Part shown: piece after piece, positions 19,307 through 42,078 of the stretch
How the letters are laid out: every line of letters starts with the position of its first letter
Position numbering within the stretch: position 1 is the stretch's first letter
Assembly: GCA_050693875.1 (NCBI GenBank)
Contig: JBOGWP010000159.1
Coordinates: 6,003-70,002, forward strand
Length of the DNA: 64,000 nucleotides
Reading direction: 5' to 3'
DNA from: Actinomycetota bacterium
Lineage (GTDB): Bacteria; Actinomycetota; CADDZG01; JAHWKV01; JBOGWP01
The notes under the pieces: generated by a model
The model's input: only the letters and a program-made list of their open reading frames with translations
What the model was told of the DNA's origin: nothing
Databases searched by the model: none
Made by a program: the position numbers and the translations under genes

Positions 19307-20578
19307 CTAGCTGCTCCGCCCCTCCAAGGCCACGATTGGCGAGTTGAGCGCCTGTCCGCCGGCGCTCCCCCTGAACGGCGCCCCGCCGAACGAGAACACC
19401 CCCCCGTCGGCAGCTCCCATCCAGTAGCCCTTGCCCAGCGGTTCGGTCGCCATCGACACGATCGGCGAGACCAGACGCAGGCTCCCGGTGGATCCGAGGA
19501 AGGGAGCGTCACCGAACGCGAAGACCCCGCCGTCGGACGCGACCAGCCAGTAGCCCTCACCTGAGGGGGTCACGTCGGCCGCGACGATCGGCCGGTTGAG
19601 CACCCTACCGCCGGTGGAGCCGAGGAAGGGGGCCTTGCTTCCGAACGCGAACACGCCGCCGTCGGCGGCGAACAGCCAGTAGCCGTCAGGCGGGGGGACA
19701 CCCCCCGCCTCCCCCCCCAGTCCTCCGCCCGAGGGCACCGCGGCGATCGCGACGATGGGTGAGTTGAGGCGGATGCCGCCGGTGGATCCGAGAAAGACTG
19801 CGTCTCCGAAGGCGAAGACGCCCCCGTCGGCCGCCACGAGCCAGTAGCCCGCACCGCTCGGGGTCGATGCCATCCCGACGATCGGAGAGTTGAGGCGGAT
19901 GCCGCCGGTGGAACCGTGGAAGCCCGATCGGCCGAAGGCGAAGATGCCGCCGTCCGAGGCGACCAGCCAGTACCCGAGGCCGGTAGGGTGCGACTTCATC
20001 GCCACGATCGGCCGGTTGAGCTTGGTCCCGCCGACTCCGCCGAGGAACGGAGCGTCGCCGAACGCAAACACTCCACCGTCGGCGCCCACCATCCAGTACC
20101 CCTGCCCCTCGCCGTTCTGGCCGACCCAGGTGGCGAAGACCGGCTCGCGGGGCCGGTCCTCCTCCTCCGGTGGGGGAGTGCCGTCGAGGGGTTCGTTGTC
20201 GGCATAGACGCGCAGGCGGAAGGTGCCCGGGGTTGCGGAGGTGAAGCTGAAGAAGGCCCGCCCGTCGGCGCTCGTGCCGCCCGTCTGGGGATCGATCTCC
20301 GGGCCGAAGTCGCTGCAGTCGGCGTTCAGGCACTGGAGCTTTACAGCCACCAGCTCCTGATCGGGGTTCGGGGTCCCGTCGGCCCGCCTTGCGACGACGG
20401 CGATCTCGTGGATCTCCCCAACCGGAAGGACCCCTGCCGCGGGCCCGATGGTGAGCGTCGCAGTTGCAGCGGCCGGAACCGCACCGGCTGGGGCCCACGC
20501 CGTCGCGAGGACCGCGGCGATCGCGAAAGACAGCGTCGCGATGCTCCGCCGGTGGGGACTGCCGAATGAGGTCTTCAT
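19307..20578 (-). CDS. secreted protein: N-terminal Ig-like domain plus six C-terminal ~38-aa GYW/DGGVF repeats
   Basis: Signal peptide after MKTSFGS. Repeats are of the form [36 protein letters not shown]. Confidence 0.7.
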   Translation of the reverse strand: MKTSFGSPHRRSIATLSFAIAAVLATAWAPAGAVPAAATATLTIGPAAGVLPVGEIHEIAVVARRADGTPNPDQELVAVKLQCLNADCSDFGPEIDPQTGGTSADGRAFFSFTSATPGTFRLRVYADNEPLDGTPPPEEEDRPREPVFATWVGQNGEGQGYWMVGADGGVFAFGDAPFLGGVGGTKLNRPIVAMKSHPTGLGYWLVASDGGIFAFGRSGFHGSTGGIRLNSPIVGMASTPSGAGYWLVAADGGVFAFGDAVFLGSTGGIRLNSPIVAIAAVPSGGGLGGEAGGVPPPDGYWLFAADGGVFAFGSKAPFLGSTGGRVLNRPIVAADVTPSGEGYWLVASDGGVFAFGDAPFLGSTGSLRLVSPIVSMATEPLGKGYWMGAADGGVFSFGGAPFRGSAGGQALNSPIVALEGRSS

Positions 20579-21021
20579 GCTCCCTCCTGTCCGCCCCCCA
20601 GTGCCGGGGCCAAGTAAACCATTGAACGCGGTGAGTGGGTTGAGGTCGGCGCCTGTGGCGATCGCCGAACGCACCCGGGGCTAGGCGAACAATCCGGAGG
20701 TTTTGCTCGTCTCTTCGCGGTAGGAAAATTCATCGGCCTTTTCCGTAGTTTGCAGGTATCCCCCGGGCCCCGCACACCGAATAATTCGACCTTTGGAAGG
20801 CCGAGCCTGGGTCTCGGCCGGGGAGCAGCCAGGGGGTCGGGGGCGACCGCTCTCTTGCCTGCACCATCCGCGGTTTCACGGCGCGCGAGGAGGACCTGAT
20901 GGATCGAGGTAAGGCACGACGGAGCCTGGGGGCAGCGGGAGACATCCTCGCCGGAGGGAAAGGGCCGCACTCGCGGCGGCAGTCGCCGGGCAAACGAAGC
21001 CGGCTGCGCGCGTGGTCGCCG

Positions 21022-22872
21022 ATGATCGTTGGGTTCCTCCTCCTGCTGATGGGGGCGACCGCGGCGTTCGCACCCCCCGCACCTTCTGTCAGCCTCGACT
21101 TCGAGGCCGCCAATCCGACCACCTACGACCACTCCGACGGCGAGGGGGGAGGGACGCACGCGACCTCGGTCGAGTCACTGGAGGGCAAGGACTTCGCCTG
21201 CGGCGACCACGTGATCTACCTGGCCTACCTCACCGCCGAGGCCAACGTCCTGGCGAACTCGACGGTGGAGATCGACCTCGCCCTCGACAACGAGACCACC
21301 TCGAACAGCGAGGCCGGGTTCCTCCAGTTGCTCGAGGCCGAGATCAACACCGACCCCGCCAACGTGCTGAGCGGCAACGAGGCGGTCACGATCTCCTCTA
21401 CCGAGACGGCGACGGCACCCGGTGACCTTGCCGACGGAACCGTCGACTCCACCATCACCATCACGGGCGTCGACGCGAACGAGGCGATCGTGGTCCGGCT
21501 CGAGGGGCTGCTCGGCTGCGGCAGCGGCAAGATCACCGGCAACATCCACGCCCGGGCTGAGGCAATGCGCCTCAACGACGAAAACCAGTCGCTCGGGGCG
21601 CAGGACGTCCCCCTGATCGGCGCGGGGGAGATCGCCCGCGGCTCGCTGACGATCGTGAAGATCAGCGTCGGCGGGGTGGGGACCTTCACGTTCGATGTGA
21701 ACTGCACGCCCGACACGCCGACGTCCTTCGACCAGACCGACATCCCGATCACGACCACGACCCCTGGCGATCCCGTCTCGCACAACATTCCGGACATCCC
21801 GGTCGGCACGGTCTGCACCGTCACCGAGGACACACCACCCAGTGATTTCACGCTCACGAATACGGATCCCGCGACCGGCACGGTGACCATTGACGCCGAC
21901 GGGGAGACCGTGACCTTTACCAACACCCGCAAGACCGGAAGCCTCGTGATCGACAAGACCGTCGTCGGAGGCACCGGGTCGGAGAGCTTCTCGGTCGACG
22001 TCGATTGCAACGACGGGACGGCTCACGACAAGAGCAACGAGCCGATCACCGACACCACCGACATCACCATCACCGGCATCCCCACCGGGACGGTCTGCAC
22101 TGTCACCGAGGACGCCGATCCGCTCTTCACCACCACCATCGTCGACAGTGACGCCACCGACGACGGGGTGGTGACGATCGATGAGAACGGCGAGACGGTC
22201 AGCATCACCAACACCCGCAAGACCGGCGACCTGATCGTCGACAAGAACACCGAGTTCGGAGCGCACCAGGACCATGTGTTCACATTCCACGTCGACTGCG
22301 ACGGGACGGCCTTCGACTCGACGTTCACCCTCACGCCCGGCGACCCGCCCCATGAGATCACCGGCATCCCCACCGGCACGGTCTGCACCGTCACCGAGGA
22401 TTCGGACCCGGACTTCGAGCTCGTCTCCGTCACGCCCCCGGGCGGCACCGTGACGATCGTGGTCGGCGACACCACGGTCACATTCGTCAACAGCTTTCGC
22501 CACAACAACCAGGGATGCACGCCCGGCTACTGGAAGAACCATCTGGACGCGTGGCCGCCCACCGGCTACAGCCCGAACCAGACCCTGGAGAGCGTCTTCA
22601 ACGTTCCGAACGAGTTCGGTCTGGACAGCAAGACGCTGCTCCAGGCACTCTCGTTCCAGGGCGGGTCGACCAGGAAGGCCGCGGCCAGGATTCTCCTCCG
22701 CGCGGGGGTGGCGGCCCTGCTGAACTCGGCGCACCCCGACGTCGACTACCCGCTGACGACCGCCGAGGTCATCAGCAAGGTGAACACCGCCCTCACCAAG
22801 AGCCGGAGCGCCATGCTCACCCTTGCCAAGCAGCTGGACCAGAAGAACAACCTGGGCTGCCCGCTGTCGTAG
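21022..22872 (+). CDS. secreted protein with three tandem ~90-aa Cys-pair repeats and a C-terminal Cys-containing domain
   Basis: Signal peptide MIVGFLLLLMGATAAFA. Three repeats of the pattern FxVxCxxxx...ITGIPTGTVCTVTED...TVT(F/I)xNT. Resembles actinobacterial surface Ig-like (DUF5979-type) domains. Confidence 0.6.
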   Translation: MIVGFLLLLMGATAAFAPPAPSVSLDFEAANPTTYDHSDGEGGGTHATSVESLEGKDFACGDHVIYLAYLTAEANVLANSTVEIDLALDNETTSNSEAGFLQLLEAEINTDPANVLSGNEAVTISSTETATAPGDLADGTVDSTITITGVDANEAIVVRLEGLLGCGSGKITGNIHARAEAMRLNDENQSLGAQDVPLIGAGEIARGSLTIVKISVGGVGTFTFDVNCTPDTPTSFDQTDIPITTTTPGDPVSHNIPDIPVGTVCTVTEDTPPSDFTLTNTDPATGTVTIDADGETVTFTNTRKTGSLVIDKTVVGGTGSESFSVDVDCNDGTAHDKSNEPITDTTDITITGIPTGTVCTVTEDADPLFTTTIVDSDATDDGVVTIDENGETVSITNTRKTGDLIVDKNTEFGAHQDHVFTFHVDCDGTAFDSTFTLTPGDPPHEITGIPTGTVCTVTEDSDPDFELVSVTPPGGTVTIVVGDTTVTFVNSFRHNNQGCTPGYWKNHLDAWPPTGYSPNQTLESVFNVPNEFGLDSKTLLQALSFQGGSTRKAAARILLRAGVAALLNSAHPDVDYPLTTAEVISKVNTALTKSRSAMLTLAKQLDQKNNLGCPLS

Positions 22873-22896
22873 GGGCCCGATCGAACGGACGCAGGG

Positions 22897-23604
22897 TCAG
22901 GGCCGGCGTGCCAGGCAGACCCAGGAAAGCCCGCGGACGAAGGCGGGCCAGCGGTCGAAGAGGAGGCGCTCCGACCCGAAGATTGCCGTGAGAATCCGGT
23001 TGCCGAGCGGGCCGGGGGTCGAGTCGCCTACCTTGTCGAGGCGCCGGAGCACCGCGGCGACGGGATACATCCATACGTTCATCGGGCAGAGCAGCGTGAT
23101 CTTCAGCCCGGCCGCCACCACGAGCTTCTCGAGGGCCGCCCGCGTGTAGCGCCGCTGGTGATCGACCGCCTCATCGTGGCGGGACCACAGGTGGGGGTGC
23201 GCCGGGACCGAGATCAGAACGAAGCCACCAGGAGCCACGATGCGGGCGAGCTCGGCGGCCGAGGCCGCGTCGTCCGGGATGTGCTCGAGCACGTCCAGGC
23301 AGCACACTAGCTGGAGGCTTCGGTCGGGGAAGGGAAGCGGCCCGGGGAGCGTTGCGTCGTGGACCAGCTCCGGGTCCACGCCGGCGGAGGCGATCGCCGC
23401 TCGAAGCGAAGGGTCCGCCTCCACGAGGCGCACCGGACGAAAACGGCGGGCGAGTCGCGTGCCCCAGATCCCGGTCCCGGCGCCGACGTCGAGCGCCCAC
23501 CCGCCGGGCGGCACGCGACGGGCGACGATCTCGTCCAGCACGCGAAGACGGCCCTGGACCCACCAGTGGGTGTCGGAGAGGACTCCGTAGGCGAGGTCGG
23601 CCAT
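22897..23604 (-). CDS. class I SAM-dependent methyltransferase
   Basis: Motif I LDVGAGTGIWG and post-I CLDVLEHIPDD. Confidence 0.75.
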   Translation of the reverse strand: MADLAYGVLSDTHWWVQGRLRVLDEIVARRVPPGGWALDVGAGTGIWGTRLARRFRPVRLVEADPSLRAAIASAGVDPELVHDATLPGPLPFPDRSLQLVCCLDVLEHIPDDAASAAELARIVAPGGFVLISVPAHPHLWSRHDEAVDHQRRYTRAALEKLVVAAGLKITLLCPMNVWMYPVAAVLRRLDKVGDSTPGPLGNRILTAIFGSERLLFDRWPAFVRGLSWVCLARRP

Positions 23605-23608
23605 CAGG

Positions 23609-24270
23609 TCAGCGCCGGTGCCCGACGACGAGGTGGTGGGGGTGAAGATAGCCGCGGTGGATGGCGGACTCGGCCACGTCGAGCCCCGCTGCTCCCATCC
23701 ATCCCGCCAGCATTGCGGGCGGCACGAACGAGATTCCCGCCCCCTCGGTGATCCGTGCCAGCCGGACCGAGACGATCTCCTGTACCACCGCGAGGCCGTA
23801 CTTCCACCGCGGCTGCATCGCCACCTCCTTCACGACGAGCGCCCCTCCGTCTCCGAGTGCCGCGGCGCAGTGCTCGACGAAGGGCCGCTGGGCGGCGCGA
23901 TCGAGCAGGTAGAGCACGTCGATCACCACGACCGCGTCCCACGGACCGCGCGGAAGCGCGCCGAGGGACGTCTGCCGGAACTCCACGCTCGCCCCGAGAC
24001 GCCGAGCCCGCGCCGCGGCGGCCTGTGCGGCCGCGATCTTGTCGCCGTCGGTGTCGATCCCGACCACGCTTCGTCGGGGCGATTCGAGCGCCAGCCACAA
24101 CGATGCGAGCCCGTGTCCGCACCCGACCTCGAGCACCCGCCCCTCGCGGGGCACGGCGCCACCGATCCGCGGGAAGGGGCACGTCCACCACCGGAGGCGG
24201 AGGTGCGCTCGCACGGAGGGAGGGGCCTGCCCGAAGAGGTCGAGCGGGTGCGCCTTCGGGCGTGTGGTGG
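23609..24270 (-). CDS. class I SAM-dependent methyltransferase
   Basis: Motif I VLEVGCGHGLASLWLA and an acidic loop VVVIDVLYLLD. The start is uncertain; a GTG just after the upstream stop was chosen, and the longer ORFs in the track are Arg-rich shadows. Confidence 0.55.
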
Positions 24271-25125
24271 TCACCACGGCCGGCGAGAGACCGGGGCCAG
24301 GGAGGCCGGCGTCCCCAGGTGGAAGCCTCCACGTGCCACCGCCTGCGCCGCGCGGGCGCTGCAGAGCGCTTCGAGCTCCTCCGCCCAGCGGTAGCCCCAC
24401 CGGTACCGTTCGCGTTCGGGATCGTGGGGGCTCCCGGGATGACAGCAGAGCTCGGCCGAGGACGCGCCCTCTGCGGCGAGGCGTCCGACCATCTGCTCGA
24501 GCATGGACGTCGAGATCCGGCCGGACTCGTCGAGTCCGGCGAAGGACGCGGGGAAGCGGAGCCCGGCGGCGGAGGCGCGTTGGGCCAGCCGGCGGGCGAG
24601 CCGGTTGACCGCCCGCCCCACCGCACGTCCGGCCCGCGAACGGGGGACACGAAGGGCTGGGATCGCGCGCCGCTGGGCGATGCCGATGACCACGTCGCCG
24701 ACCGGGGGCCACAGGTGCAGGTGCTGATGGGCGTCCACGTGGGTGAGGGGCACCCCGAGGCCTGCGACTCGCTCGGCCTGGGCGTCGAACTCACGTCGCA
24801 GGTCGTCGGCGTCGATCCGCCCCGCCGCGGCCCGGCGTACGAACGATCGCCAGGAAGGTGCCAGCCGGCCTCGCCGGTCGACCAGCGTCGGGATCTCGCG
24901 CGCCGAGAGCAGGGGTGGATCCTCGCCAACCGCGGCGAGGTGCGCCCCCACGCCGAGCTCCCCAGAATCCGCGAGCAGCGACGCGGTACGGTCGAGCGCG
25001 GGCCCGAGGGCCAGCACCGACGTCGAGGTCACGATGCCCCGGTGGTGCGCCTCGAGGATGCCCAGGGAGACTCCCTCGGTGAGGCCGTAGTCATCCGCGG
25101 TGACGATCAGGAGGTCCGGGGTCAA
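24271..25125 (-). CDS. ChbG/YdjC-family carbohydrate deacetylase
   Basis: N-terminal LIVTADDYGLTEGVSLGILEAHHRGIVTSTSV and HVDAHQHLH match the YdjC family. TTG start. Confidence 0.75.
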   Translation of the reverse strand: MTPDLLIVTADDYGLTEGVSLGILEAHHRGIVTSTSVLALGPALDRTASLLADSGELGVGAHLAAVGEDPPLLSAREIPTLVDRRGRLAPSWRSFVRRAAAGRIDADDLRREFDAQAERVAGLGVPLTHVDAHQHLHLWPPVGDVVIGIAQRRAIPALRVPRSRAGRAVGRAVNRLARRLAQRASAAGLRFPASFAGLDESGRISTSMLEQMVGRLAAEGASSAELCCHPGSPHDPERERYRWGYRWAEELEALCSARAAQAVARGGFHLGTPASLAPVSRRPW

Positions 25126-25985
25126 TCGTCCCTCGTCGCGTCCACCGCTTGAGCGACGGGCCGCTCGGGACGGCGCGGGTCGAGTCGGTCGGGTCCGCGG
25201 CCTCGTCGCCGGTTCCTGTAGCCGAGTGGCCGCAGCCGAAGCGTCTGCGGCGGGAGCCGGCGGACGCCGCTGAGCTCGCTGCGCAGCGCCGACATCTCGC
25301 GAAGCACCTGCAGGATCACCGACCCGGACGACAGCGTCGAGGGCCCGCGCGTCCGGGCGAAGTAGTCCACGCCGAACTGGATGACGCCGTAACCCAGGCG
25401 ATGGGCCCGCACCAGCAGCTCGGCGTCGATGAAAGATCCCTCGCTTTTCAGCGAGAGGTGGTCGAAGATCCGCCGGCGGCAGAGCTTGAAGGAGAAGTTA
25501 ACGTCCCGGATGCGGAAATGGAAGAGGGCACGAACGAGCAGGTTGTAGCCCCAAGAGTAAAGAGCGCGGCGGGGCCCCTCGCTGGTTCGGTCGTGCCGGT
25601 AGGCGCTGACGACGTCGGCGCCGTAGATGCGCATCAGCCGGCAGGCCTTGCGCAGCTCTCCGAAGTCGAAGGGAAGGTCGGCGTCGGCGTAGCAGACCAG
25701 CTCTCCACGGGCCTCGGAGAACCCCGTCTTCAGCGAGCCGCCAAGCTTGCGATTGACCGGGTGGTGCACAACGCGAACATGGCGATCGTCGGCGGCCAGC
25801 TCCTCGCCGATCTTGCCGGTGGCGTCGGTGGATGCGTCGTCGACGACGAGAATCTCGTAGTCGGCGATCTCTCCCTCCGCGACGAGCTCCCTGCAGGTCT
25901 CGAGGGCTGCCGCGACCGCGGGCCGGATGTACGCCTCCTCGTTGTGCATCGGAAAGAAGACGGTGAGCGAGGAGAAGTTGGGCAT
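25122..25985 (-). CDS. GT2 polyprenol-phosphate glycosyltransferase (Ppm1/DPM1-like)
   Basis: Has the GT-A DxD region (EILVVDDASTDATG, YADADL) and the DPM1-like length and layout. Start at MPNFSSLTVFFP; the 711-aa ORF in the track is an upstream shadow. Confidence 0.8.
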   Translation of the reverse strand: MPNFSSLTVFFPMHNEEAYIRPAVAAALETCRELVAEGEIADYEILVVDDASTDATGKIGEELAADDRHVRVVHHPVNRKLGGSLKTGFSEARGELVCYADADLPFDFGELRKACRLMRIYGADVVSAYRHDRTSEGPRRALYSWGYNLLVRALFHFRIRDVNFSFKLCRRRIFDHLSLKSEGSFIDAELLVRAHRLGYGVIQFGVDYFARTRGPSTLSSGSVILQVLREMSALRSELSGVRRLPPQTLRLRPLGYRNRRRGRGPDRLDPRRPERPVAQAVDATRDD

Positions 25986-25987
25986 GG

Positions 25988-27223: not shown

Positions 27224-27348
27224 TATCCTCCGTCGTTCTCTCGGCCAAACTTCTCAAAATGCCTCATCCGTCCACTCTTGACATCAGTACCCCCCGCCCA
27301 TAGCGTGTCCCCGGCGGGGGGTCGGTACCAAACGAGAAGGAGGCCACA

Positions 27349-29193
27349 TTGCGACGTCGCACGCTCCTTGCCCACTCCGCCTTCCTGCTGGCCACCCTCG
27401 GCGTGTTCCCCGCATCGGGGGCCGAACAGACCATCGGCGCCGGGGCGACACTGAAGGATGCCGGCGGCGCCGATATTGGGTTCGTCTTCTTCGAGCAGGT
27501 CGGCGATGAGGTCGGGGTGGTCGTCGAGGTCCACGGGGGCATCGACCCCGGCTTCCACGGGTTCCACATTCACGACGTGGGCGACTGCACCGGCCCGACC
27601 TTCGTCTCGGCCGGTCTGCATTTCAAGCCAGGCAGCACCGATCACGCCGCCCATGCCGGCGACCTGCCGGCGCTCCTCGTGAACCAGGGCAACGCCGCGG
27701 TGGCCACCTTCATGACCGACCGCTTCGAGGTCTCCGACCTCTTTGGGGGAGACGGCACCTCGATCGTGATCCACGCCGACCCCGACAACTACGCCAACAT
27801 CCCCGACCGCTACTCCTCGAACGAGGGGGGTGCGCCGCCGACGGGGCCGGATACCACGACGCTGACTGCTGGCGACTCCGGCGACCGCGTGGCCTGCGGC
27901 GTGATCGAGGGCGCCGACGAGATGGCCTCGGACTTGAAGGCGGCAGAGGCTGCGTTCACCTCACCCGGCTATTGGATGGTGGCCTCAGACGGCGGCGTGT
28001 TCGCCTTCGACGCACCGTTCAAGGGCTCCACCGGCGGGATCGCCCTGAACCAGCCCATCGTCGCGATGGACGGAACCCCGTCAGGGGAGGGCTATTGGAT
28101 GGTGGCCTCAGACGGCGGTGTGTTCGCCTTTGCCGACGCCGGGTTCAAAGGGTCGACCGGCGGAACGAAGCTCAACAAGCCGATCGTCTCGATGGCGGCG
28201 ACCGAGACCGGAAACGGCTATTGGATGGCTGCGAGCGACGGCGGCGTCTTCGCCTTCGGCGACGCCGGCTTCCTCGGCTCCACGGGAGGGATCACCCTGA
28301 ACTCGCCGATCGTCGGCATGGCCGGCCGGCACCCGGGTGCTCAGGCCGACATCAAGAACACCGCCGGCCAGGTCGTCGGCCGCGCACGCTTCGAGGAGGC
28401 GGACGGTGCGCTGTTCGTCACGGCGGAGCTCAGCGGGCTGACGCCCGGCTTTCACGGGTTCCACATCCACACGACGGGAGAGTGCACGGGGAGCTTCACC
28501 TCCGCCGGTGGACATATCAACCCGGCGCCGGCCCAGCCCCACGGTGACCACATCGGCGACCTCCCCGTGCTGCTGGTCGAGGCCGACGGGACCGTCACGG
28601 GGGCCACATACGCGACCGACCGCTTCACGCTCGCCGACCTCTTCGACGCCGACGGGAGCGCGCTCGTCGTGCACTCCGCTCCAGACAACTTCGCCAACAT
28701 CCCAGACCGCTACTCCTCGAGCGAGCCCGGCGCGCCGGCGACGGGGGCGGACGCCACGACGCTCGCCGCGGGGGACTCGGGCTCGAGAGTGGCCTGCGGG
28801 GTCGTCGAGGGTTCGGACAAGCCCGGCTACTGGATGGCGGCTGCCGACGGCGGCGTGTTCGCCTTCGGCGGAGCGGCCTTCCACGGCTCTACCGGGTCGA
28901 TCAAGCTCAACAAGCAGATCGTGGGCATGGCGGCAACCCCAAGTGGCCAGGGCTACTGGCTGGTCGCCTCGGATGGCGGGGTCTTCGCCTTCGGAGATGC
29001 CAAATTCCACGGCTCCACCGGTTCGATCAAGCTCAACTCGCCGATCGTCGGGATCGCATCCACACGAACCGGTGAGGGCTACTGGCTGGTTGCCGCAGAC
29101 GGCGGTGTGTTCGCCTTCGGTGACGCCGAGTTCAAGGGGTCGACCGGCAGTCTCAAGCTCAACAAACCGATCGTGGCGGTGGCCGCCGCCTAG
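27349..29193 (+). CDS. secreted tandem Cu/Zn superoxide dismutase (SodC) domains, each followed by three GYW/DGGVF repeats
   Basis: TTG start with a GAAGGAGG RBS, then a signal peptide. Both SodC domains have the full ligand set (HGFHIHD; H..H..H..D; IVIHADPDN; GDSGDRVACGVIEG). Confidence 0.8.
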   Translation: MRRRTLLAHSAFLLATLGVFPASGAEQTIGAGATLKDAGGADIGFVFFEQVGDEVGVVVEVHGGIDPGFHGFHIHDVGDCTGPTFVSAGLHFKPGSTDHAAHAGDLPALLVNQGNAAVATFMTDRFEVSDLFGGDGTSIVIHADPDNYANIPDRYSSNEGGAPPTGPDTTTLTAGDSGDRVACGVIEGADEMASDLKAAEAAFTSPGYWMVASDGGVFAFDAPFKGSTGGIALNQPIVAMDGTPSGEGYWMVASDGGVFAFADAGFKGSTGGTKLNKPIVSMAATETGNGYWMAASDGGVFAFGDAGFLGSTGGITLNSPIVGMAGRHPGAQADIKNTAGQVVGRARFEEADGALFVTAELSGLTPGFHGFHIHTTGECTGSFTSAGGHINPAPAQPHGDHIGDLPVLLVEADGTVTGATYATDRFTLADLFDADGSALVVHSAPDNFANIPDRYSSSEPGAPATGADATTLAAGDSGSRVACGVVEGSDKPGYWMAAADGGVFAFGGAAFHGSTGSIKLNKQIVGMAATPSGQGYWLVASDGGVFAFGDAKFHGSTGSIKLNSPIVGIASTRTGEGYWLVAADGGVFAFGDAEFKGSTGSLKLNKPIVAVAAA

Positions 29194-29291: not shown

Positions 29292-31439
29292 TCAGGGAGC
29301 GAGCGCCAGATCGAGCGCGGTGATGCGCAGCCCGCCCGCCCACGGGCTGCCGTAGTACGGTGCGTCCCCGTAGGCGTTGAGAGAGCCGCCGCTTCCCAGC
29401 ACGTAGTACCCCCTTCCGGTGGCCGTCGAGGCGACGCGCACCGCGGACATACCCGTGCCGGCGGCGGATCCAAGGAAGGACGCGTCCCCGAACGCGAAGA
29501 CCCCGCCGTCCTCACCGACGAGCCAGTACCCCTGCCCGGAGGGAGTCGGCGCCATCCCGGCGATGGGGCGGTTGAGCCGGATCCCGCCGGTCGAGCCGTG
29601 AAAGGCCGCGTCTCCGAAGGCGAACACCCCGCCATCCGAGGCAACCAGCCAGTACCCCGCCCCGGTCGGCGTGGGGGCCATGCCCACGATGGGCCTGTTC
29701 AGAGGGAGTCCCCCGGTGGAGCCGTGGAAGGCCGCGTCTCCGAACGCGAACAGGCCGCCGTCCGACGCCACCATCCAGTACCCCTCGCCTCCCGTGGAAG
29801 TGCCCATGTCGACGATTGGCTCGTTCAGCCGGGTGCCGCCCATCGATCCGGAGAAGCCGGCACTCCCGAACGCGAACACGCCTCCGTCGGCCGCCACCAT
29901 CCAGTAGCCGTCAGGCCCGGGGACACCCCCCGGCTCCCCTCCGACACCCCTGGGCGTGGACACGTCCATGGCCACGGCCGGGGAGTTGAGCCGCATACCG
30001 CCGGTCGATCCTAGAAAGGGCGCGGACCCGTAGCTGAAGATCCCCCCATCCGAGCCCATCACCCAGTATCCCGAGGGAACCTCGCCCTCGGTGACGACGT
30101 AGCGCCCGCTCACCGGGGCGGTGGGTGACGCCCTGCCCGGCGCGTCGAAGGCGGTGGCGCGAACCGAGTAGGTGTCCAGGGCCAGGGGGAGTCCGCCGTA
30201 GTCGGCATCGGTGACTGCGAAGGATCCTGCCGATGCCGGAACCGATACCGTCCGGACAGGCCCACCGCCCACGGGCGTGAACGTCGTCTCCACCCGGGTG
30301 GTCGCCCGGCTCACCGCACCCGAGAGTCCCGGCGTCACGTCCTTCGTCACCCCCGCGGGGAGGAGCTGCGTGCCCGTCGGCATCGAGGGCGAGCTCAGGG
30401 CGGAGAGGGCGTTGATGCGCGAGTCCACCGCCTGACGGACCGAGGGCAGCTGGCCGTAGAGGAGGTCGCCGGGACATTCGGTGTCGCCGGCGTCCTTGTG
30501 ACCGGCAATGTTGGGGATCGAGTCCGCCGACCCGAGGGGGTCGATTCCGTGGCGGTCGGCCTTCCAGGACAGAAGTGCGACGAGCGACTCCAGGGCGGCC
30601 GGGCGTGGCATCACGGACCGGAAGTCGCCGAGCACCGCCACGCCGGCGCTGCCCGTGTTCCATCCCGAGACGTGCGCCCCGACCACGCCGAGCCCGTTTG
30701 CGTTCTCGCCGCTCGGCTCGCCATCGGGCCGGGCGTAGCGGCCCTCGTAGACGCGACCGTTCGAGTCGACGAGGAAGTTGTAGCCGATGTCGTCCCAGCC
30801 GCGAGACTGGGTGTGGTAGCTGTAGATTGCTCGGATCGTTCCTTCCGGATCCGCGTCGTCGTTCACAGTCACGGTGTGGTGGACAAACAATCGCCGCACC
30901 CTGGCGAAGCTGGGGGAAGCCTTCCGGAGCGACTCGTCGGCGCCCCACTCGGCCCGCGAGATCACCGGGGGCCCCGGCGTTGCCCCCGAGGCGGCACGGT
31001 CGACCAGAATGGAGCGGCGGGGACCGTCGCGGGTGTTGATCGCACTGACGTAAAGCCGGGCGTCCCCGCCGCGCACCTGGACCCATTCGGCTCGGTCGAC
31101 GGAGATCAGCGTGCCGAAGAACAGGCCGGCGTCGTGATCGCTCAAATCCTCCGACACCTCGACCAGCCGCCAGGCAGACCACGAGATGCCGTCGGGGCTC
31201 GTCCGAACCTCGGGCGGGTCGTCCCCGATCCACGACAGACCCAGGTGGGTGGCCGCGAAGGGGAGCGCCTGAGGTGCCCGGGGAGTGCCCGGGCTGACGT
31301 CCGGGGCGCCCATCCGGACGTAGAGCGTCCTCGGGACGTCGAAGGCGAACGAGGCGGAGACCACGACCGGGAGCAGCCCCGCGACGAGCCCGAGCACGAC
31401 CAGGAGTCGGATGGGGGCCCGCAAAGCGCTGGTACGCAT
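29292..31439 (-). CDS. secreted peptidoglycan amidase (Amidase_2/PGRP domain) with six C-terminal GYW/DGGVF repeats
   Basis: Signal peptide. Amidase_2 core (LFVHHTVT...HTQSRGWDDIGYNFLVDSNGRVYEGR...AGHKDAGDTECPG). C-terminal repeats. Confidence 0.8.
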   Translation of the reverse strand: MRTSALRAPIRLLVVLGLVAGLLPVVVSASFAFDVPRTLYVRMGAPDVSPGTPRAPQALPFAATHLGLSWIGDDPPEVRTSPDGISWSAWRLVEVSEDLSDHDAGLFFGTLISVDRAEWVQVRGGDARLYVSAINTRDGPRRSILVDRAASGATPGPPVISRAEWGADESLRKASPSFARVRRLFVHHTVTVNDDADPEGTIRAIYSYHTQSRGWDDIGYNFLVDSNGRVYEGRYARPDGEPSGENANGLGVVGAHVSGWNTGSAGVAVLGDFRSVMPRPAALESLVALLSWKADRHGIDPLGSADSIPNIAGHKDAGDTECPGDLLYGQLPSVRQAVDSRINALSALSSPSMPTGTQLLPAGVTKDVTPGLSGAVSRATTRVETTFTPVGGGPVRTVSVPASAGSFAVTDADYGGLPLALDTYSVRATAFDAPGRASPTAPVSGRYVVTEGEVPSGYWVMGSDGGIFSYGSAPFLGSTGGMRLNSPAVAMDVSTPRGVGGEPGGVPGPDGYWMVAADGGVFAFGSAGFSGSMGGTRLNEPIVDMGTSTGGEGYWMVASDGGLFAFGDAAFHGSTGGLPLNRPIVGMAPTPTGAGYWLVASDGGVFAFGDAAFHGSTGGIRLNRPIAGMAPTPSGQGYWLVGEDGGVFAFGDASFLGSAAGTGMSAVRVASTATGRGYYVLGSGGSLNAYGDAPYYGSPWAGGLRITALDLALAP

Positions 31440-31506
31440 TCATCCTTTTTCGACTCACAGCCGGGTGGCCTTGACCGGTCCGGGGGGTCTGGGGGCCTGA
31501 TCCGGG

Positions 31507-32667: not shown

Positions 32668-32770
32668 CGGGAAGGGACACTACCAACCGGGAAAGCGGCG
32701 ATAGCGAACACGGGCCGGCTCCTCCACTATTCTCGCGACCGAATTCGGTCGGCACATACGGGAGGATTCG

Positions 32771-33864: not shown

Positions 33865-33868
33865 CCGC

Positions 33869-34981: not shown

Positions 34982-35057
34982 GGCGGCACGATTATCGAGC
35001 GTGGTCGGCGCGGGCGGCGGCAGGATGCCGGAGGCCGGGGCGGTGGGGCGGTGCCGG

Positions 35058-36791
35058 CTACCGGGCGATGCCGACGATCGGCTTGTTGAGCCGGATGCCC
35101 CCCGTCGAGCCGAAGAATCCGGCATCTCCGAAGGAGAAGACGCCGCCGTCCGAGGCGACGAGCCAGTAGCCCGACCCGGTCGAGGTCCCGGCCATTCCGA
35201 CAATCGGCTGGTTGAGCTTGATGCCGCCGGTGGATCCGTGGAACGCGGCATCGCCGAAAGCGAAGATCCCCCCGTCGGAGGCGACGAGCCAGTAGCCCCT
35301 GCCGGTCGGCGTCGCGGCCATCCCCACGATCGGCTGGTTGAGGCGCATCCCGCCCGTCGAGCCGGCAAAGCCCGCGTCGCCGAAGGCGAAGATCCCGCCG
35401 TCGGATGCCACCATCCAGTAACCGCGGCCCGATGGGGTCGTCTCGATGCCCACGATGGGACGGTTCAGCCGAAGGCCCCCGGTGGAACCGAAGAACCCGG
35501 CGTTGCCGAACGAGAACACGCCGCCGTCCGAGGCGACCATCAGGTAGCCGTCGGGGGCAAAGACCTGGAACCAGTCCGACCGCAGCCCCAGCTTCGACCG
35601 GACGTCGCTGCCCGTCACGACCACGCTTCCCGCCGTACCGACCAGCCGCATTCGGGTGACGCGCCCCCCGAGGTCACCGAGCCCATTGCGCTCGAGCACC
35701 TCGAGCCCGATGAGATGACCAATCTCCGGCCACGCCGCATCGACGGCGGGGACCGCAACCGACGTCCGCCACTGGTGGTTCGGGTTCTGGGAAACGTCGT
35801 CGCCGTCGTCGGGGACCGCCGGAAAGACCCCGCCGGCAGTCCAGCCCCCCGTCGACGAGGAGTACTCGGCCCGGGCCACACCCCCGTTGCGGAACCGCAC
35901 CTGGCCGGCAGTCTCGGAAACCGCGGAGTCGGTGGACGGCTGCTCGACGTCGCGGTAACCGCCCGGACCCTGCTCGGCGCGGCCCAGGTACACCTGGCAG
36001 GCGGTGGAGTCGCACGTCCGGCCGAACGATTGCACCTGGGACATCGCGTAGGAGCGTGCCGCCACGGCCTGCGCGCGGAGCGCATGCATGCCCATCCCGC
36101 CGCCGAGGCCTCCCCACGACGACGGTGACTCCGCGGGTACAACGCCGCGCAGATACGCCTCGAGCGGCAGCTCGTTGACGGTGCGTTGGAGGGCGTCCTC
36201 CTCGAAGCTGCGCAGGCTTCCTCGCAGCCAGCGAGTCGTTCCACCCGGCTCACACACCTGGAGCATCTCCTCACGTTCGCCCGTCGGATTCGTGGGCTCG
36301 ACCACGACCGGGCCGATCGCGCCGCCGTTGATGAGCGTCCACGGACCCCCGCACCCGCCGCCCGAGAACACCTGGAACAGGTTTGGCCCGATCCGGTGCA
36401 CCAGCAGGCCGGAGTGCTGTCCGGGGCCGCTCGGGGTCTGCATGTGGCCGCGCTCCTGCGCGACGACGAGGTCGGCGTTCTCGAATCGTGTGAGACGGAC
36501 GGCGATGACGCCGTCACCGACCGCGCCCGGCGATGTTCCCCCGTAAAAGTGCCCAAGGATGCTCCCGTAGTCCCAGCGCTCGTCGACGGCGTAGCCGAGC
36601 GCGCCGTACTGGCCCATGCCACGGCCGTGACCCCAGCCGTGCCCCTCGAGCTCGACGGTGGGGGCGGGGTAGGCGAGGACGGGCGCCCCCGGCAACGCGG
36701 TGACGCCCAACGCAATCAGCGCTGCGGCGACGAGCGTGACGAAACGGAAGCCCCTGGGACGAGACGCGCCGAGGCGAGGGTTCGAGGTCAT
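35058..36791 (-). CDS. secreted SpoIID/LytB-domain protein with four C-terminal GYW/DGGVF repeats
   Basis: Start MTSNPRLG with a signal peptide. SpoIID/LytB signatures ([26 protein letters not shown]) and four repeats. Confidence 0.8.
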
Positions 36792-36874
36792 GACGTGAAA
36801 GGAAACCACGCGGCGGCGGGTCGCCGCAGGTTTTCCGGCGGATCTGCACGGCCCGTCTGCTAGCGTTTCCCGCC

Positions 36875-37840
36875 GTGGGGGTCGAGCAGCAGGACCGGCG
36901 GGCCAGAACCGTGCGCAAGGCACGTCAGCTCCTCGCGCGCGGGATCCGCCGCTCCCCGCGACTGCGCTTGATGGCGGAGCGGGCGGTTTCGGAGCTGGAG
37001 CGGGCCCTCGTCGCCGAGGATCTCTACAGCTCCCGGTACTTCGGCACCGGAGTTCACCCCACCGACCGCGGAAAGAGTGTCTCCGGCTACGCCGAGTACC
37101 GGCGCGAGACGTCGAACCTGAACGTGGCGGCCTACATCGTCTACAAGCATCTGCGCCCCGCCCGCGTCGTCGATATCGGGGCGGCGCGGGGGTATCTGCT
37201 CGAGGCGCTCTCGGAGGTCGGCGTCGAGGGTCATGGGGTCGACCTCAGCCATGACGCGATCGCGTCCGCCTCCGACGAGGTCCGGGGCCGGATGACCGTC
37301 GCCTCGGCGGTGCGCCTGCCGGTCGTAACTGGGGCCGCCCCCGTTGTCACGGCGTTCGAGACGCTCGAGCACCTGCCGCCGCACGACGTGTCCCGGGCAC
37401 TGGCCGAGCTGGCCCGGGCCACGAGTGCGTTCGTCGTGGCGACCATCCCCTCATTCGGTCGGAACGACTACGGGCCGAACGGATGGTACGGGGGCAAGGT
37501 CCTCTGGGAGGTCCTACATGCGTACGAGGCCCTCGGCCCAGACTACGAGGGGCCGATCCCCTATCACGACCTGATGCGCGACGGGGAGAACAACCCGATC
37601 GAGGGACATTTGACCATCGCATCCTTCTCGTGGTGGACCAAGCGCTTCGCCGAAGCCGGCCTGGTGCGGTTCGGCAAGCTCGAGGAGGCGATGAACGCCG
37701 ACCTCGGCCGGTTCGGGCTCCTCGGGCAGCAGATCTGGCACCTTTACGTGGCGGGCAAGCCCGAGGCGGAGATCCCGCAGGGGGCGTCCTACGAGGAGGC
37801 CCTGCGGGCTGAGGAAGTCCTCGACCTCGGCCGGGGGTGA
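36875..37840 (+). CDS. class I SAM-dependent methyltransferase
   Basis: Motif [16 protein letters not shown] and [15 protein letters not shown] start. Confidence 0.65.
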
Positions 37841-37844
37841 CGGG

Positions 37845-38798
37845 TCAGACCCGCTCGCGCCAGTAGTCGAGGGTGTCGGCAAGCATCGTCTCGACCGGGA
37901 TATCGGGGGTCCACCCGGTAGCCTCGCGGAACTTCGTCGAGTCGGAGATCAGGATCTCGACGTCAGACGGACGCATCCGGTCGAGTGACTGCTCCACCTC
38001 GATGGCCGCCTCCGACAACGAGAGCAGATGGTCGAGCATCTGGCGGATGGTGAGGGCCACGCCGCTGCCGATGTTGTAGACCTCGCCCGGCGCTCCCTTC
38101 TCGAGCGCCAGCCAGTAGGCGACGACGATATCGCGGACATCGGTGAAGTCCCGAACGGCGTCGAGGTTCCCCACCCTCACGACCGGCTCCCGTGCCCCCT
38201 TCTCGATCTCGGCGATCTGGCGAGCGAAGGCCGAGGGCAGCAGCACCTCCCCGCGCCGCGGCCCCCCGTGGTTGAACGCCCGGGTCCGCACCGCGTGAAA
38301 CCCATAGGAGCGGTGGTATTGGTAGCCGAGGAAGTCCTGTCCAACCTTGCTGACCGCATACGGTGAGAGGGGGCGCAGCGGGTTGGTCTCCTTGATGGGC
38401 GTCTCGCTCGGCAGAACCAGCCCGTACTCCTCGCTCGAACCGCAGACGAGGAATCGGGTGTCGAGCAGGTCGAGGGCCCGCATCGCCTCGAAGAGGTTGA
38501 GCTGGCTCATGATGTTCATCTGGAGCGTCTGTCCCGGTGCGTTCCAGGAGGTCGGAACGAAGGACTGCGCCGCGAGGTGGAAGATCCAGTCCGGCCGGAT
38601 CGACTCGAGCGCCCGATGGACCGAAGCGGGGTCGAGCAGGTCGACCTCGACGAGGTGCAGGTCCTTGATGTGCTCGATGTTCTCCCGCCGGCTCCTCCAC
38701 CGGTAGGTGCCGACGACCTCGAGGTTGCCGCGCGCCAGGCAGTACTCCGCCAGGTGGCTGCCGACGAATCCGGTGGTCCCGGTGATCAATACCTTCAC
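37845..38798 (-). CDS. gmd: GDP-mannose 4,6-dehydratase
   Basis: GTG start with a GGAGGAG RBS. VLITGTTGFVGSHL, YAVSKV..., and RAFNHGGPRRGE matches the Gmd-specific block (NHESPRRGETF). Confidence 0.75.
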   Translation of the reverse strand: MKVLITGTTGFVGSHLAEYCLARGNLEVVGTYRWRSRRENIEHIKDLHLVEVDLLDPASVHRALESIRPDWIFHLAAQSFVPTSWNAPGQTLQMNIMSQLNLFEAMRALDLLDTRFLVCGSSEEYGLVLPSETPIKETNPLRPLSPYAVSKVGQDFLGYQYHRSYGFHAVRTRAFNHGGPRRGEVLLPSAFARQIAEIEKGAREPVVRVGNLDAVRDFTDVRDIVVAYWLALEKGAPGEVYNIGSGVALTIRQMLDHLLSLSEAAIEVEQSLDRMRPSDVEILISDSTKFREATGWTPDIPVETMLADTLDYWRERV

Positions 38799-38868
38799 GA
38801 AGACTCCTCCGACCTCGGTGCGGCGAAAGGATAGCGGGCGAACGGCGGCGGGTGAAACCGTGTTCCGC

Positions 38869-39795
38869 TCAGGGTCGTGATTCGTACCAGGCGAGGGTGT
38901 CGGCAAGGGAGATCTCGATCGGGATCTCCGGGCGCCAGCCCACGGCCTCGCGGATCTTCGAGCTGTCGCCGACCAGGATCTGGGGATCCCCCGCCCGCGG
39001 GGGCGCCTCCTCCACGACCTCGACCCGACCAGAGAGCCCGGCGACGTCGAGGAGGATCTTGAGGAGGTCTCCGATCAGCACTGCTTCGCCCGATGCGACG
39101 TTGTAGACCTCGCCGCCGTCCCCCCCTTCGATGAGGAGCCGGTAGGCGGCGACGACGTCACGGACGTCGAGGAAGTCGCGCCGGGAGTCGAGCCGGCCGA
39201 CCCGCATGAGCGGGTTGCGCCCACGGGATATGTCCGTTATCTGCGCGCAGAAATGCCCGACCGCGTACCCCTCGCCCTGGCCAGGGCCGGTGTGGTTGAA
39301 GGGCCTCGCGGCGAGGACGGACACCCCCAGCTCGCGGTGGTAGAGCATCCCGATCAGTTCCCCGGCGGCCTTGCTCACCGCGTACGGGGACGGCGGATGC
39401 AGGGGGTCGGACTCGGTGAGCGGGCGATTGGAGCCGGCGGACCCGTAGACCTGGGCGGAGCCGACCAGCAGCACCCTCGTCTCCGGGCGGTTCCGGACGC
39501 CCTCGAGCAGGTTGCTGGTTCCGACGACGTTGATCTCGTAGGTCTCGGCCGGCGCCTCCCAGGAGCGGGGGACCGAGGCCTGTGCCGCCAGGTGGATCAC
39601 CGCGTCCGGCTCGTGGCGGCCGATGACTGCGCCCGTCGCCTCGGCATCGCGAAGGTCGAACGCCTCGATCGCCGACGCGGCCTCAGCCTCGAACGCATGC
39701 AACGAGCACGCGACCACCTCGTGGCCGGCGTGCCCGAGATCGGCGATCAGGTGGTGGCCGACGAAGCCGCCGGCTCCGGTGACGAGGACGCGCAT
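38869..39795 (-). CDS. rmd: GDP-4-dehydro-6-deoxy-D-mannose reductase-like NAD-dependent epimerase/dehydratase
   Basis: VLVTGAGGFVGHHL, YAVSKAAGE, and the FNHTGPGQ block characteristic of Rmd-type reductases. Adjacent to gmd. Confidence 0.65.
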   Translation of the reverse strand: MRVLVTGAGGFVGHHLIADLGHAGHEVVACSLHAFEAEAASAIEAFDLRDAEATGAVIGRHEPDAVIHLAAQASVPRSWEAPAETYEINVVGTSNLLEGVRNRPETRVLLVGSAQVYGSAGSNRPLTESDPLHPPSPYAVSKAAGELIGMLYHRELGVSVLAARPFNHTGPGQGEGYAVGHFCAQITDISRGRNPLMRVGRLDSRRDFLDVRDVVAAYRLLIEGGDGGEVYNVASGEAVLIGDLLKILLDVAGLSGRVEVVEEAPPRAGDPQILVGDSSKIREAVGWRPEIPIEISLADTLAWYESRP

Positions 39796-39867
39796 TTGGC
39801 GAGCCTAACCCCCGGGGGCTGTGCACCCACACTGCCGGCACCGGTAGGCCGCGCGGGTGGCCAGGGC

Positions 39868-42078
39868 TCACGTTCCTGCGGCGGTCATCGTCACGATGGG
39901 CTGGTTGAGCTTGATCCCACCGGTCGATCCAAGGAAGGGGGCGTTGAAGGCGAAGATCCCGCCGTCCGAGGCCACCAGCCAGTATCCATCAGTCGAGGGG
40001 ACACCCAGCTCCGCACCGACACCCCGGCCCGACGGGACGGCGGCCATGTCCACGATCGGACGGTTGAGCTTGATCCCACCGGTCGACCCGTGGAATTCGG
40101 CATCTCCGAAGGCGAAGATCCCGCCGTCCGAGGCGCACAGCAGGTACCCGTTGCCGCTTCGGGACCGTGCCATTCCCACGATGGACTGGTTGAGCCTCAT
40201 CCCACCGGTCGAGCCGTGGAAGGCGGCGTCTCCGAACGCGAACATCCCGCCGTCCGCCGCGGCGAGCCAGTAGCCGTCACCCGAGGGCGTGGATGCCATC
40301 GCCACGATGGGCTGGTTGAGCTTCATCCCACCGGTCGAGCCATGGAAGGCGGCGTCTCCGAACGCGAACATCCCGCCGTCGGCCGCGGCGAGCCAGTAGC
40401 CGTTGCCAGAGGGAGTCCGCGCCATTCCCACGATGGGCTGGTTGAGATGGATCCCGCCGGTGGAGCCGTGGAAGCCGGCATCCCCGAACGCGAACATCCC
40501 GCCGTCGGCCGCGGCGAGCCAATACCCCCTTCCGGAGCGTGTGGCCGCCATGGCCACGATCGGCTGGTTGAGCCGGATCCCGCCGGTGGAACCCTGGAAG
40601 GCCACGTCGCAGAAGGCGAAGATGCCTCCGTCCGAGGCGGCCAGCCAATACCCACCCTGCCCGTGCACGGGACAGGGGTCGGAGGTGAGCGACGACTCGG
40701 TCCACGAGCCGGTACGGCGGGCGTCGCGGCGGAACATCGGCCAGCCGAGGTTGCCCAGATTCCCGCCGTCGAGCTCGAAGCGGTAGGCGACGCCTTTGCC
40801 GCCCTTCGTGCCGGCGAGCAGCACGTCGAGCCTCCCGTCGCCGTCGACGTCGGTCACGAGTGGCGAGTTCTGGAAGCCGACCTGGCCCTCGAGGAGCGCG
40901 AACATCTGGGCTCCCGTGTCTCCGTCGAACGCCCAGACCCCCGCTCCGCTCGGCACGAGCAGATCCTGGCCCCCGTCGCCGTCGATGTCGGCAGTGGTGA
41001 TCGAGCCGAGCACCACACCACCTCCGGAGCTGTGGTGCCACAGCTCGCGTCCGTCGCCCTTCCACACCCAGACCTGCCCGGGGTTGGCTCCCGACCAGGT
41101 GCCCTCGATGACCTCGAGCCGGCTGTCGCCGTCGACGTCGGCCAGGGTCGGAGATGCCTTCGTGTAGGCCCCGGTCTCCCGCGACCACTTCAGCTGCCCG
41201 GAGCTGCTGAGGACGAAGAGCCTCGTCGAGTCGGAGCGCTTGTAGAAGTCACCCGTTCCGAAGACGACCTCCGGACTGCCGTCCCCATCGATGTCGCCGA
41301 CCGCGGGTGAGCCCTGCACGATCTCGTTCGTCCGGAACTCCCACAGCACCTGACCGCCGCCCGTCATCGCTCGGACGAACCCGCCCGACCAGTCCACCGG
41401 CGGGCCGGACATGGAATCGGCCCCGATGATGAAGTCGGTGCGCCCGTCGCCGTTGACGTCGGTGAGGGCGGCGGAGGAGAAGACCGTGTCGTCGGAGTAG
41501 AAGGGGAACCCGGCGTTGGTCACCCCACTTTGCGAGATCGACCAGATGCTCTGCAGCCCCAGAGAGCCAAAGGTCGCGTCGGCCTGCCCGTCGCCGTTCA
41601 CGTCGCCGAGCGCAGGCGTCGAGTAGATGGAGGGATTGGCGAAGTCGTTGTCGCGGGCGACGAACCGGAACCGCTGCCCCCCGTCGTGGTCGAACGAGTA
41701 GAGGGCACCGCCCGTCGTCTCCGCCGTCCCGCTGCCGATGAAGATTTCCGGCCGGCCGTCACCGTCGGTGTCGGCGGTGGAGGGTGAGGAGGAGATCCCG
41801 TTGGAGGTTCCGCGGGGCCAGCCTCCGACATCGGATCCATCGCCGGCGTGCAGGGCCCAAACCTGGCCGTCTCGGGCCCCGAACACCACGTCCGGGCCGC
41901 CTCCGTCGAGGTCGGCAATCACGGGCGACGACTCCTGAACCGGCCCCCCCAGGGTGCGCTCCCAGACGAGGCGGGGCGCGGCCTCCGCTGGGCCCGCGAG
42001 CGGAACGACGGCGGCGGAGACGAGCAGGGCGACCGACAGCACGCGCCCGAGTCGGCGCGCCGCAGGCGTCGAATTCAT
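39868..42078 (-). CDS. secreted FG-GAP/integrin-alpha-like beta-propeller protein with six C-terminal GYW/DGGVF repeats
   Basis: Signal peptide. Seven DxDGDGxxD FG-GAP calcium-binding blades (for example DLDGGGPDVVFG, TDGDGRPEIFIG, VNGDGRTDFIIG), then the repeat module. Confidence 0.8.
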   Translation of the reverse strand: MNSTPAARRLGRVLSVALLVSAAVVPLAGPAEAAPRLVWERTLGGPVQESSPVIADLDGGGPDVVFGARDGQVWALHAGDGSDVGGWPRGTSNGISSSPSTADTDGDGRPEIFIGSGTAETTGGALYSFDHDGGQRFRFVARDNDFANPSIYSTPALGDVNGDGQADATFGSLGLQSIWSISQSGVTNAGFPFYSDDTVFSSAALTDVNGDGRTDFIIGADSMSGPPVDWSGGFVRAMTGGGQVLWEFRTNEIVQGSPAVGDIDGDGSPEVVFGTGDFYKRSDSTRLFVLSSSGQLKWSRETGAYTKASPTLADVDGDSRLEVIEGTWSGANPGQVWVWKGDGRELWHHSSGGGVVLGSITTADIDGDGGQDLLVPSGAGVWAFDGDTGAQMFALLEGQVGFQNSPLVTDVDGDGRLDVLLAGTKGGKGVAYRFELDGGNLGNLGWPMFRRDARRTGSWTESSLTSDPCPVHGQGGYWLAASDGGIFAFCDVAFQGSTGGIRLNQPIVAMAATRSGRGYWLAAADGGMFAFGDAGFHGSTGGIHLNQPIVGMARTPSGNGYWLAAADGGMFAFGDAAFHGSTGGMKLNQPIVAMASTPSGDGYWLAAADGGMFAFGDAAFHGSTGGMRLNQSIVGMARSRSGNGYLLCASDGGIFAFGDAEFHGSTGGIKLNRPIVDMAAVPSGRGVGAELGVPSTDGYWLVASDGGIFAFNAPFLGSTGGIKLNQPIVTMTAAGT

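Follow-up and report, generated by a model that had tools for sequence, protein, structure and literature searches.

A repeat shared by five exported proteins

We analysed a 64,000-nucleotide stretch of DNA from an Actinomycetota bacterium (positions 6,003 to 70,002 of contig JBOGWP010000159.1, assembly GCA_050693875.1), hereafter the window, in which positions are counted from the first letter. The window has a G+C content of 68-71% and encodes five proteins, p1 to p5, that carry the same tandem repeat, here called the GYW repeat. As assigned from the list of open reading frames (ORFs) and a hidden Markov model (HMM) of the repeat, p1 (19307..20578, minus strand) consists of a signal peptide, a beta-rich head and six repeat units at 19313-20101. 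In p2 (27349..29193, plus strand), a signal peptide is followed by a SodC domain, units 1-3 (27967..28338, plus strand; 71-79 bits each), a second SodC domain and units 4-6 (28825..29190, plus strand; 73-81 bits each). The remaining three proteins are all encoded on the minus strand: p3 (29292..31439) has a signal peptide, an Amidase_2 domain (aa 179-325) and five units plus a degenerate sixth at 29319-30071; p4 (35058..36791) has a signal peptide, a SpoIID/LytB domain and four units at 35055-35549; and p5 (39868..42078) has a signal peptide, an FG-GAP propeller head and six units at 39874-40653. Three of the five ORFs, with products of 614, 715 and 577 aa, are also gene calls of a public metagenome-assembled genome (MAG) record, GCA_975100735.1, and the 614-aa protein is identical to the NCBI entry 'superoxide dismutase family protein [Actinomycetota bacterium]'.

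These five genes had been pointed out in an earlier note, made by a model from the sequence, and all of them are present at the coordinates it gave. Its assignment of signal peptides also holds, as judged by eye from an N-terminal positive stretch followed by a hydrophobic stretch in each protein. Among the heads that it named, Pfam and NCBIfam profiles recover Sod_Cu twice, Amidase_2, SpoIID/LytB and FG-GAP, whereas the head of p1, described there as Ig-like, has no significant Pfam family (best E = 0.13).

The repeat is in tandem in all five proteins, with the consensus GYW(L/M)VASDGG(V/I)FAFGDAxFxGSTGGxxLNxPIVGMAxTPxGx, and its measured period is 42 aa rather than the approximately 38 aa first estimated. 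We trained an HMM on 27 units and searched the six-frame translation of the whole window with it. It detects 28 units within the five genes, whose individual E-values lie between 1e-18 and 1e-26, apart from a degenerate unit at E = 8e-4; the sixth unit of p3 scores only 8 bits. Tandem Repeats Finder likewise reports 126-nt arrays in all five genes, with 72-81% matches.

The four-unit count of p4 is insecure. A partial SpoIID protein from another assembly (P0389, on a 1,371-nt contig labelled Nocardioidaceae), which we compared with 35058-35300 (minus strand) of the window, shares 98% identity with p4 up to the end of unit 3, after which it runs into a loop-containing junction, VPSGGGFGGESGGVPATEG, that is absent in p4. 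Because P0389 departs at this point, the count in p4 may be strain-specific or assembly-dependent, and the difference reflects either strain-level variation or assembly collapse in the repeat array.

A predicted six-bladed propeller

An AlphaFold 2 (AF2) model of the p5 module (aa 472-736), computed with an input alignment of 32 modules, is predicted with high confidence (pLDDT 94, pTM 0.91), with low confidence only at an inserted loop described below. In both models that we obtained, DSSP assigns three strands per 42-aa unit, a result that concerns strand assignment and not an inspection of the coordinates themselves. The regular strands of each blade are PIVGMA, GYWLVA and GVFAF, while the 16-residue outer segment DAxFxGSTGGxxLN is irregular in the DSSP output of both models. 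Foldseek retrieves generic propellers with the model as query, with figures of 18.3 for Nidogen, about 18 for the YWTD domains of LRP6/LDLR, about 17 for the NHL domains of TRIM71 and Brat, 16.3 for the PknD sensor and 16.2 for the RSL fucose lectin.

Taken with the dominance of six units in the family (see below), these confident models bear out the earlier suggestion of one blade per unit and an ordered propeller, and we consider it very likely that the module folds as a beta-propeller with six blades, in which each 42-residue unit forms one blade. The novelty that had been claimed for the module extends to its sequence family, which is undescribed, and not to its fold, an ordinary propeller with six blades.

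A functional unit of six blades

Among 149 representatives of the family at 50% identity, 108 have six units, and the others include proteins with 12 units or 6+6. Where relatives that score four or five units were inspected, the terminal blades are degenerate. The split module of p2 was examined in an alignment of 65 SodC orthologs of the same architecture. The units around the second SodC domain are arranged 2+4 in 60 of these orthologs and 3+3 in four, including p2 itself, and the total is six in 64 of 65, the remaining protein having an extra 7-bit match. Because the split varies while the total stays at six, the second SodC domain is inserted between blades, and the two half-modules of p2 form one propeller. 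Six blades are the functional unit of the module.

The blades are also strongly alike. In a set of 2,396 units, conservation exceeds 70% at about 30 of the 42 positions, which, as read from the alignment, is unusually uniform for a propeller.

A shared loop at different junctions and a decayed sixth copy

Three of the modules contain an inserted loop, GGxGGExGGVPxPDGYW, recognised from the unit spacing and from DNA alignment. In p1, the loop GGLGGEAGGVPPPD (19685..19726, minus strand) lies between units 3 and 4, where it increases the spacing to 55 aa versus 42; in p3, GVGGEPGGVPGPD (29910..29945, minus strand) lies between units 1 and 2; and in p5, GVGAELGVPSTD (39988..40023, minus strand) lies between units 5 and 6, where the model has low confidence. 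A fourth instance occurs at 12900..13174 (minus strand), where a three-frame translation reveals two decayed repeat units (34 and 47 bits against the HMM) with the same loop. DNA alignment shows the loops in all four places to be homologous. The loop is rare elsewhere: only seven of 388 relatives from other organisms have any spacing of such size, and the loop sequence itself occurs in none of the 388.

The loop had been noted before as common to three proteins, which is correct, and as lying in the penultimate unit of each, which is not. Its different junctions also bear on the proposal that the module moved as a complete cassette. In a unit-by-unit identity matrix, units are 0.69 identical within a protein versus 0.66 between proteins, and there is no positional orthology of units between proteins. 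We reject the cassette hypothesis on the identity matrix and the loop junctions, and the SodC module is moreover split. Since the loop junctions differ and positional orthology is lacking, single-cassette transfer is out, and the modules appear instead to be connected via register shifts or the exchange of single blades within this lineage. The description of the module as a shared C-terminal element does not hold as a rule either, as it is found at the N-terminus, right behind the signal peptide, as often as at the C-terminus in relatives, and p2 has the order SodC, three units, SodC, three units.

The decayed copy was overlooked in the earlier note, which named five proteins. It contains stop codons and a frameshift, and DNA alignment places a 1-nt deletion inside the loop, in a G-run. 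A short ORF with a signal-peptide-like segment (13253..13597, minus strand) lies upstream and ends at a stop before the repeats. Because the broken units follow this ORF, we assign 12900-13174 to a decayed sixth member of the family and 12900-13597 (minus strand) to a pseudogene, a homopolymer assembly error being less likely.

An undescribed family largely restricted to Acidimicrobiia

When the five window proteins and ten relatives were compared to Pfam-A (models up to 2025) and NCBIfam release 20, no family covered the repeat. Profiles of SLH, LysM, SH3b, CW_binding_1, PG_binding_1 and SPOR do not match the repeat region at E <= 1. Searches of PDB chains with the p1 module sequence and with the repeat profile returned nothing significant, the best profile match being the RCC1-like domain of HERC2 (E = 0.066). 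The RCC1 and RCC1_2 profiles do not match the repeat, and RCC1/BLIP-II-like propellers are seven-bladed versus six blades here. The earlier statement that the repeat could be matched to no named sequence family thus stands for the Pfam, NCBIfam and PDB sequence and profile searches. The motif strings occur in no paper of the full-text library searched, and keyword searches likewise returned nothing on the repeat.

Partial matches to DUF5818 and Ribosomal_L24e fall below the curated cut-offs and were treated as spurious; on one relative, Ribosomal_L24e reaches 26.9 bits against a cut-off of 27. The label 'ribosomal protein L24E' is attached by JGI to the repeat proteins P0011, P0028, P0034, P0100, P0108 and P0314. 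As the repeat yields a sub-threshold match to Ribosomal_L24e, we regard this label as a systematic misannotation.

The family is large. When 1.84 billion cluster representatives (50% identity clusters) were searched with the profile, 20,846 proteins scored E <= 1e-3, with 11,305 reaching E <= 1e-30; two word-indexed searches for relatives each returned at least 8,000 candidates, and a scan of one genome per species gave at least 588 loci, of which 80 were kept for analysis. Nearly all of these 80 come from MAGs of Acidimicrobiia/Acidimicrobiales, with the cultured Acidithrix ferrooxidans PY-F3 in addition, and the family appears, from these searches, to be almost confined to Acidimicrobiia. 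The Acidithrix protein (L043, 2905-4539) carries a signal peptide, has its six units at the N-terminus, and has a C-terminal domain without a Pfam match. A reading of this last domain as a GH25 muramidase was a guess from its sequence and was dropped, as Pfam gives it no support.

The partners of the module are diverse. Among the 120 closest relatives, the Pfam-named partners are CAP (23), NlpC/P60 (13), CHAP (11), YkuD (4), 3D (3), Transglycosylase-like (2), VanY (2) and M23 (1), and the remaining partners are various Ig-like and other domains. A set of 68 more diverse representatives contains 56 families, such as Big_1, fn3, subtilase, sulfatase, phosphoesterase, Amidase_3, SLT_3 and RCC1. 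An HMM scan for fusion partners, as the earlier note had proposed, thus recovers more than 50 different extracytoplasmic domains. Because the range of partners is broad and has a core of peptidoglycan enzymes, the module would be a general envelope-retention module.

Phage endolysins and a lectin propeller in the same position

The repeat is also encoded by viruses. A scan of IMG/VR identified 24 viral loci, at 15 of which the protein is 260-512 aa long and ends in exactly three units, while three of the 24 proteins have six. An Amidase_2 head was found in 11 of 21 viral proteins scanned, and most of the viral repeat proteins match endolysin- or amidase-annotated PHROG families. At one locus (L101), the repeat gene is preceded by tape-measure, tail and minor-tail genes and followed by Gam and single-strand-annealing (SSAP) genes, and by this order it is in a real phage lysis position. 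The C-terminal domain of endolysins from phages of Gram-positive hosts is the wall-binding domain, and the repeat sits C-terminal to the catalytic domain in the phage endolysins, that is, in the position of the wall-binding domain. As three units make half a ring, and with the split SodC module and the RSL lectin as analogues, we infer that the three-unit endolysin tails may dimerise to complete a six-bladed ring. Two viral contigs (L086, 4921-8055; L087, 4588-7656) encode proteins of about 1,030 aa with 11 units each, which may be tail-associated lysins or products of host-derived genes.

Among SpoIID/LytB orthologs, a different propeller is found in place of this one. We collected 120 orthologs with the SpoIID head alone as query; six GYW units are present in 62 and none in 35. 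Of the latter, the 23 that are near full length end in a repeat region of similar size. Pfam identifies the DUF346 repeat in two of three such C-terminal regions scanned, and one such region gives E = 2e-81 against PLL2 and PHL, lectins of Photorhabdus, and about 5e-4 against fucose lectins of fungi; lectins of the PLL/PHL type have been described (PMC6943638, PMC5584973, PMC12203525). Roughly one in four of the SpoIID/LytB orthologs would thus carry a PLL/PHL-type propeller at the C-terminus instead of the GYW propeller, named examples being P0390, P0406 and P0419. DUF346 has no Pfam match on the window repeat, and homology between the GYW repeat and the DUF346/PLL lectin repeat was rejected (hhalign probability 0.02). 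Because the two occupy the same position with no detectable homology, the GYW and PLL/PHL propellers look like alternative solutions for the same job.

A probable wall-binding module

The earlier note had read the module as envelope-binding or lectin-like, a reading that draws support from the phage endolysin position and from the swap with a lectin propeller in SpoIID orthologs; it is from these that we infer binding. By this analogy, the propeller is probably a wall-binding module, and the observations are best explained by a putative, hitherto undescribed and class-specific cell-wall-binding propeller that occurs in hundreds of cellular protein architectures and in phage endolysins. It would be a self-contained, non-catalytic targeting module that keeps exported enzymes and adhesin-like domains attached to the Acidimicrobiia cell wall. 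The signal peptides of all five window proteins and the peptidoglycan enzymes among the partners point the same way. Attachment would be non-covalent, with a wall polymer of repeating structure as its target, which would be peptidoglycan or else a secondary wall glycan. Since all blades are conserved to an unusual degree, binding may be multivalent, with one equivalent site on each.

A number of observations weigh against a wall-binding role. The solved propellers that are closest by structure (YWTD and NHL) bind proteins or RNA, not sugars, and we identified no known sugar-binding motif in the module, for which the model coordinates were not inspected. Proteases, sulfatases and a GH43 occur as partners and would equally fit a role in substrate binding or adhesion. 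The four units of p4 do not fit a closed six-bladed ring unless the protein oligomerises or its assembly is incomplete. Finally, the genomic neighbourhood varies: in a tblastn comparison of 12 neighbouring proteins with the 80 related loci, the GT-C, GT2 and GT4 glycosyltransferases that accompany the propeller genes in the window were found within 3 kb at none of the 80, and a SodC ortholog lies in the housekeeping nusA-infB-pnp region.

The ligands of the YWTD and NHL domains lead to one rival account, in which the propeller is a protein-protein docking module that places its cargo on a protein scaffold at the surface, which could be an S-layer, a membrane complex or its own copies, as YWTD, NHL and TolB propellers do. 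We consider this unlikely. Endolysins of phages attack the wall from inside, and the domains they usually carry bind the wall rather than dock to a scaffold, a lectin propeller holds the same position in SpoIID orthologs, and the blades of protein-binding propellers usually diverge, whereas here each blade stays near one consensus. The degradative partners fit another account, in which the module is a lectin or carbohydrate-binding module for foreign or environmental glycans that serves adhesion or substrate capture. This is similarly improbable, as the commonest named partners besides CAP act on the cell's own peptidoglycan, the SodC and L,D-transpeptidase heads require no foreign substrate, and the target of phage endolysins is the host wall.

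Comparison with known propellers and wall-binding repeats

When compared to NHL and YWTD (Ldl_recept_b) propellers, which include the extracellular sensor of Mycobacterium tuberculosis PknD, the GYW module has the six-bladed fold in common. The sequences differ, with no NHL or Ldl_recept_b match at E <= 1 in the five proteins and identities of 7-12%, a separation that is based on sequence-to-profile searches and not on profile-profile comparison. The blades of NHL and YWTD propellers are also much less alike than GYW blades, and the known NHL and YWTD ligands are proteins or RNA. NHL and YWTD blades are four-stranded; DSSP assigns three regular strands per blade to the GYW models, with the 16-residue outer segment left irregular.

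The wall-binding repeats of endolysins and Gram-positive surface proteins (SH3b, LysM, CW_binding_1, SLH and CWB2) resemble the GYW module in their position C-terminal to phage amidases, in occurring within one genome on numerous exported proteins whose heads are unrelated, and in being repetitive and, for the GYW module, probably multivalent. They differ in that there is no sequence relationship and in that the GYW module is predicted to be a propeller rather than an SH3, LysM, solenoid or SLH fold, with binding as a predicted property. The PLL/PHL (DUF346) lectins are likewise propellers with near-identical blades, as are the multivalent fucose lectins RSL, AAL and FleA. PLL/PHL lectins have seven blades and a repeat of about 47 aa with another motif, as against six blades of 42 aa here. 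The phage versions with three units find a parallel in RSL, whose six blades come from two-blade chains.

A superoxide dismutase fused to a propeller is known from Deinococcus radiodurans, in which a Cu/Zn-SOD is joined to an SGL-type propeller lactonase (PDB 9m58; PMC12362111). This fusion raises the question of whether the GYW propeller is itself an enzyme, such as a lactonase. In the Deinococcus fusion, the propeller is an SGL enzyme that binds calcium, has divergent blades and is appended as a single block, whereas p2 has two SodC domains, the second of which lies between blades, and no SGL signature. More generally, the GYW module has no Pfam match to SGL or any other catalytic propeller family; catalytic propellers have divergent blades and one asymmetric active site, whereas the blades here are near-identical; and the module has over 50 unrelated domains as partners and is present in endolysins in halves of three units. 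An enzymatic role is therefore very improbable, and wall binding remains the account that we favour.

Glycan genes and other neighbours in the window

The five propeller genes are interspersed with genes for a UDP-glucose/GDP-mannose dehydrogenase-family protein, a GT4, a GT2, a YdjC protein, four methyltransferases, two enzymes of the GDP-mannose-dehydratase family and three paralogous GT-C membrane glycosyltransferases. The dehydrogenase, GT4, GT2, YdjC, methyltransferase and dehydratase-family genes occupy 16794-19283, 22897-26210, 36875-39795 and 42289-43215. The three GT-C paralogs (PIG-V/PMT_2-like; 25988-27223, 31507-32667 and 33869-34960, all on the minus strand) are 30-55% identical to one another, and each adjoins a propeller gene, namely p2, p3 and p4.

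This arrangement suggests that the propeller genes lie in an envelope-glycan island. At related loci, homologs of YdjC and of the GDP-mannose dehydratase were found at one of 80 each. As the neighbourhood is not conserved and the association is local to this genome, we have downgraded the glycan cluster as functional evidence, and a link between the propellers and the product of the cluster is speculation. The GT-C paralogs might either add sugars to the propeller proteins or make the ligand that these would bind. A more specific version of the wall-binding model would make the GYW propeller a general non-covalent surface-display anchor of Acidimicrobiia, a counterpart of SLH and CWB2, that reads a specific secondary wall glycopolymer via six equivalent sites; the polymer here would be a 6-deoxy- or O-methyl-hexose glycan made by the surrounding cluster, and phage half-propellers would dimerise to read the same polymer. 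We regard this combination as speculative and rather unlikely.

Other genes of the window encode secreted or predicted membrane proteins as well. A 657-aa secreted protein (20899-22872, plus strand) has three DUF5979/SpaA-like prealbumin-fold domains, a repeated TGTVCTVTED motif and a helical C-terminal region; the propeller repeat is absent from it. Predicted secreted or membrane proteins without a Pfam match are encoded at 9882-12816 and 32638-33864 (205, 418, 206 and 408 aa), and the 408-aa protein is a multi-pass membrane protein whose gene lies between two of the GT-C genes.

Implications

What is new here is a sequence family, inside a known fold and a known functional category; it is no new fold, principle or kind of system. 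The family would provide a natural repeat propeller that accepts a whole domain between its blades and also occurs as half-rings. Soils, waters and acid environments harbour abundant Acidimicrobiia, whose cell envelope is, to our knowledge, almost unstudied. If the module is indeed a wall-targeting propeller, its recognition would add a propeller to the known wall-binding folds of endolysins, being absent among the usual SH3b, LysM, choline-binding repeats, SLH and CWB2. It would also explain how hydrolases, SodC and adhesin-like domains are retained on the wall, and would provide a handle for annotating the surface proteome of Acidimicrobiia.

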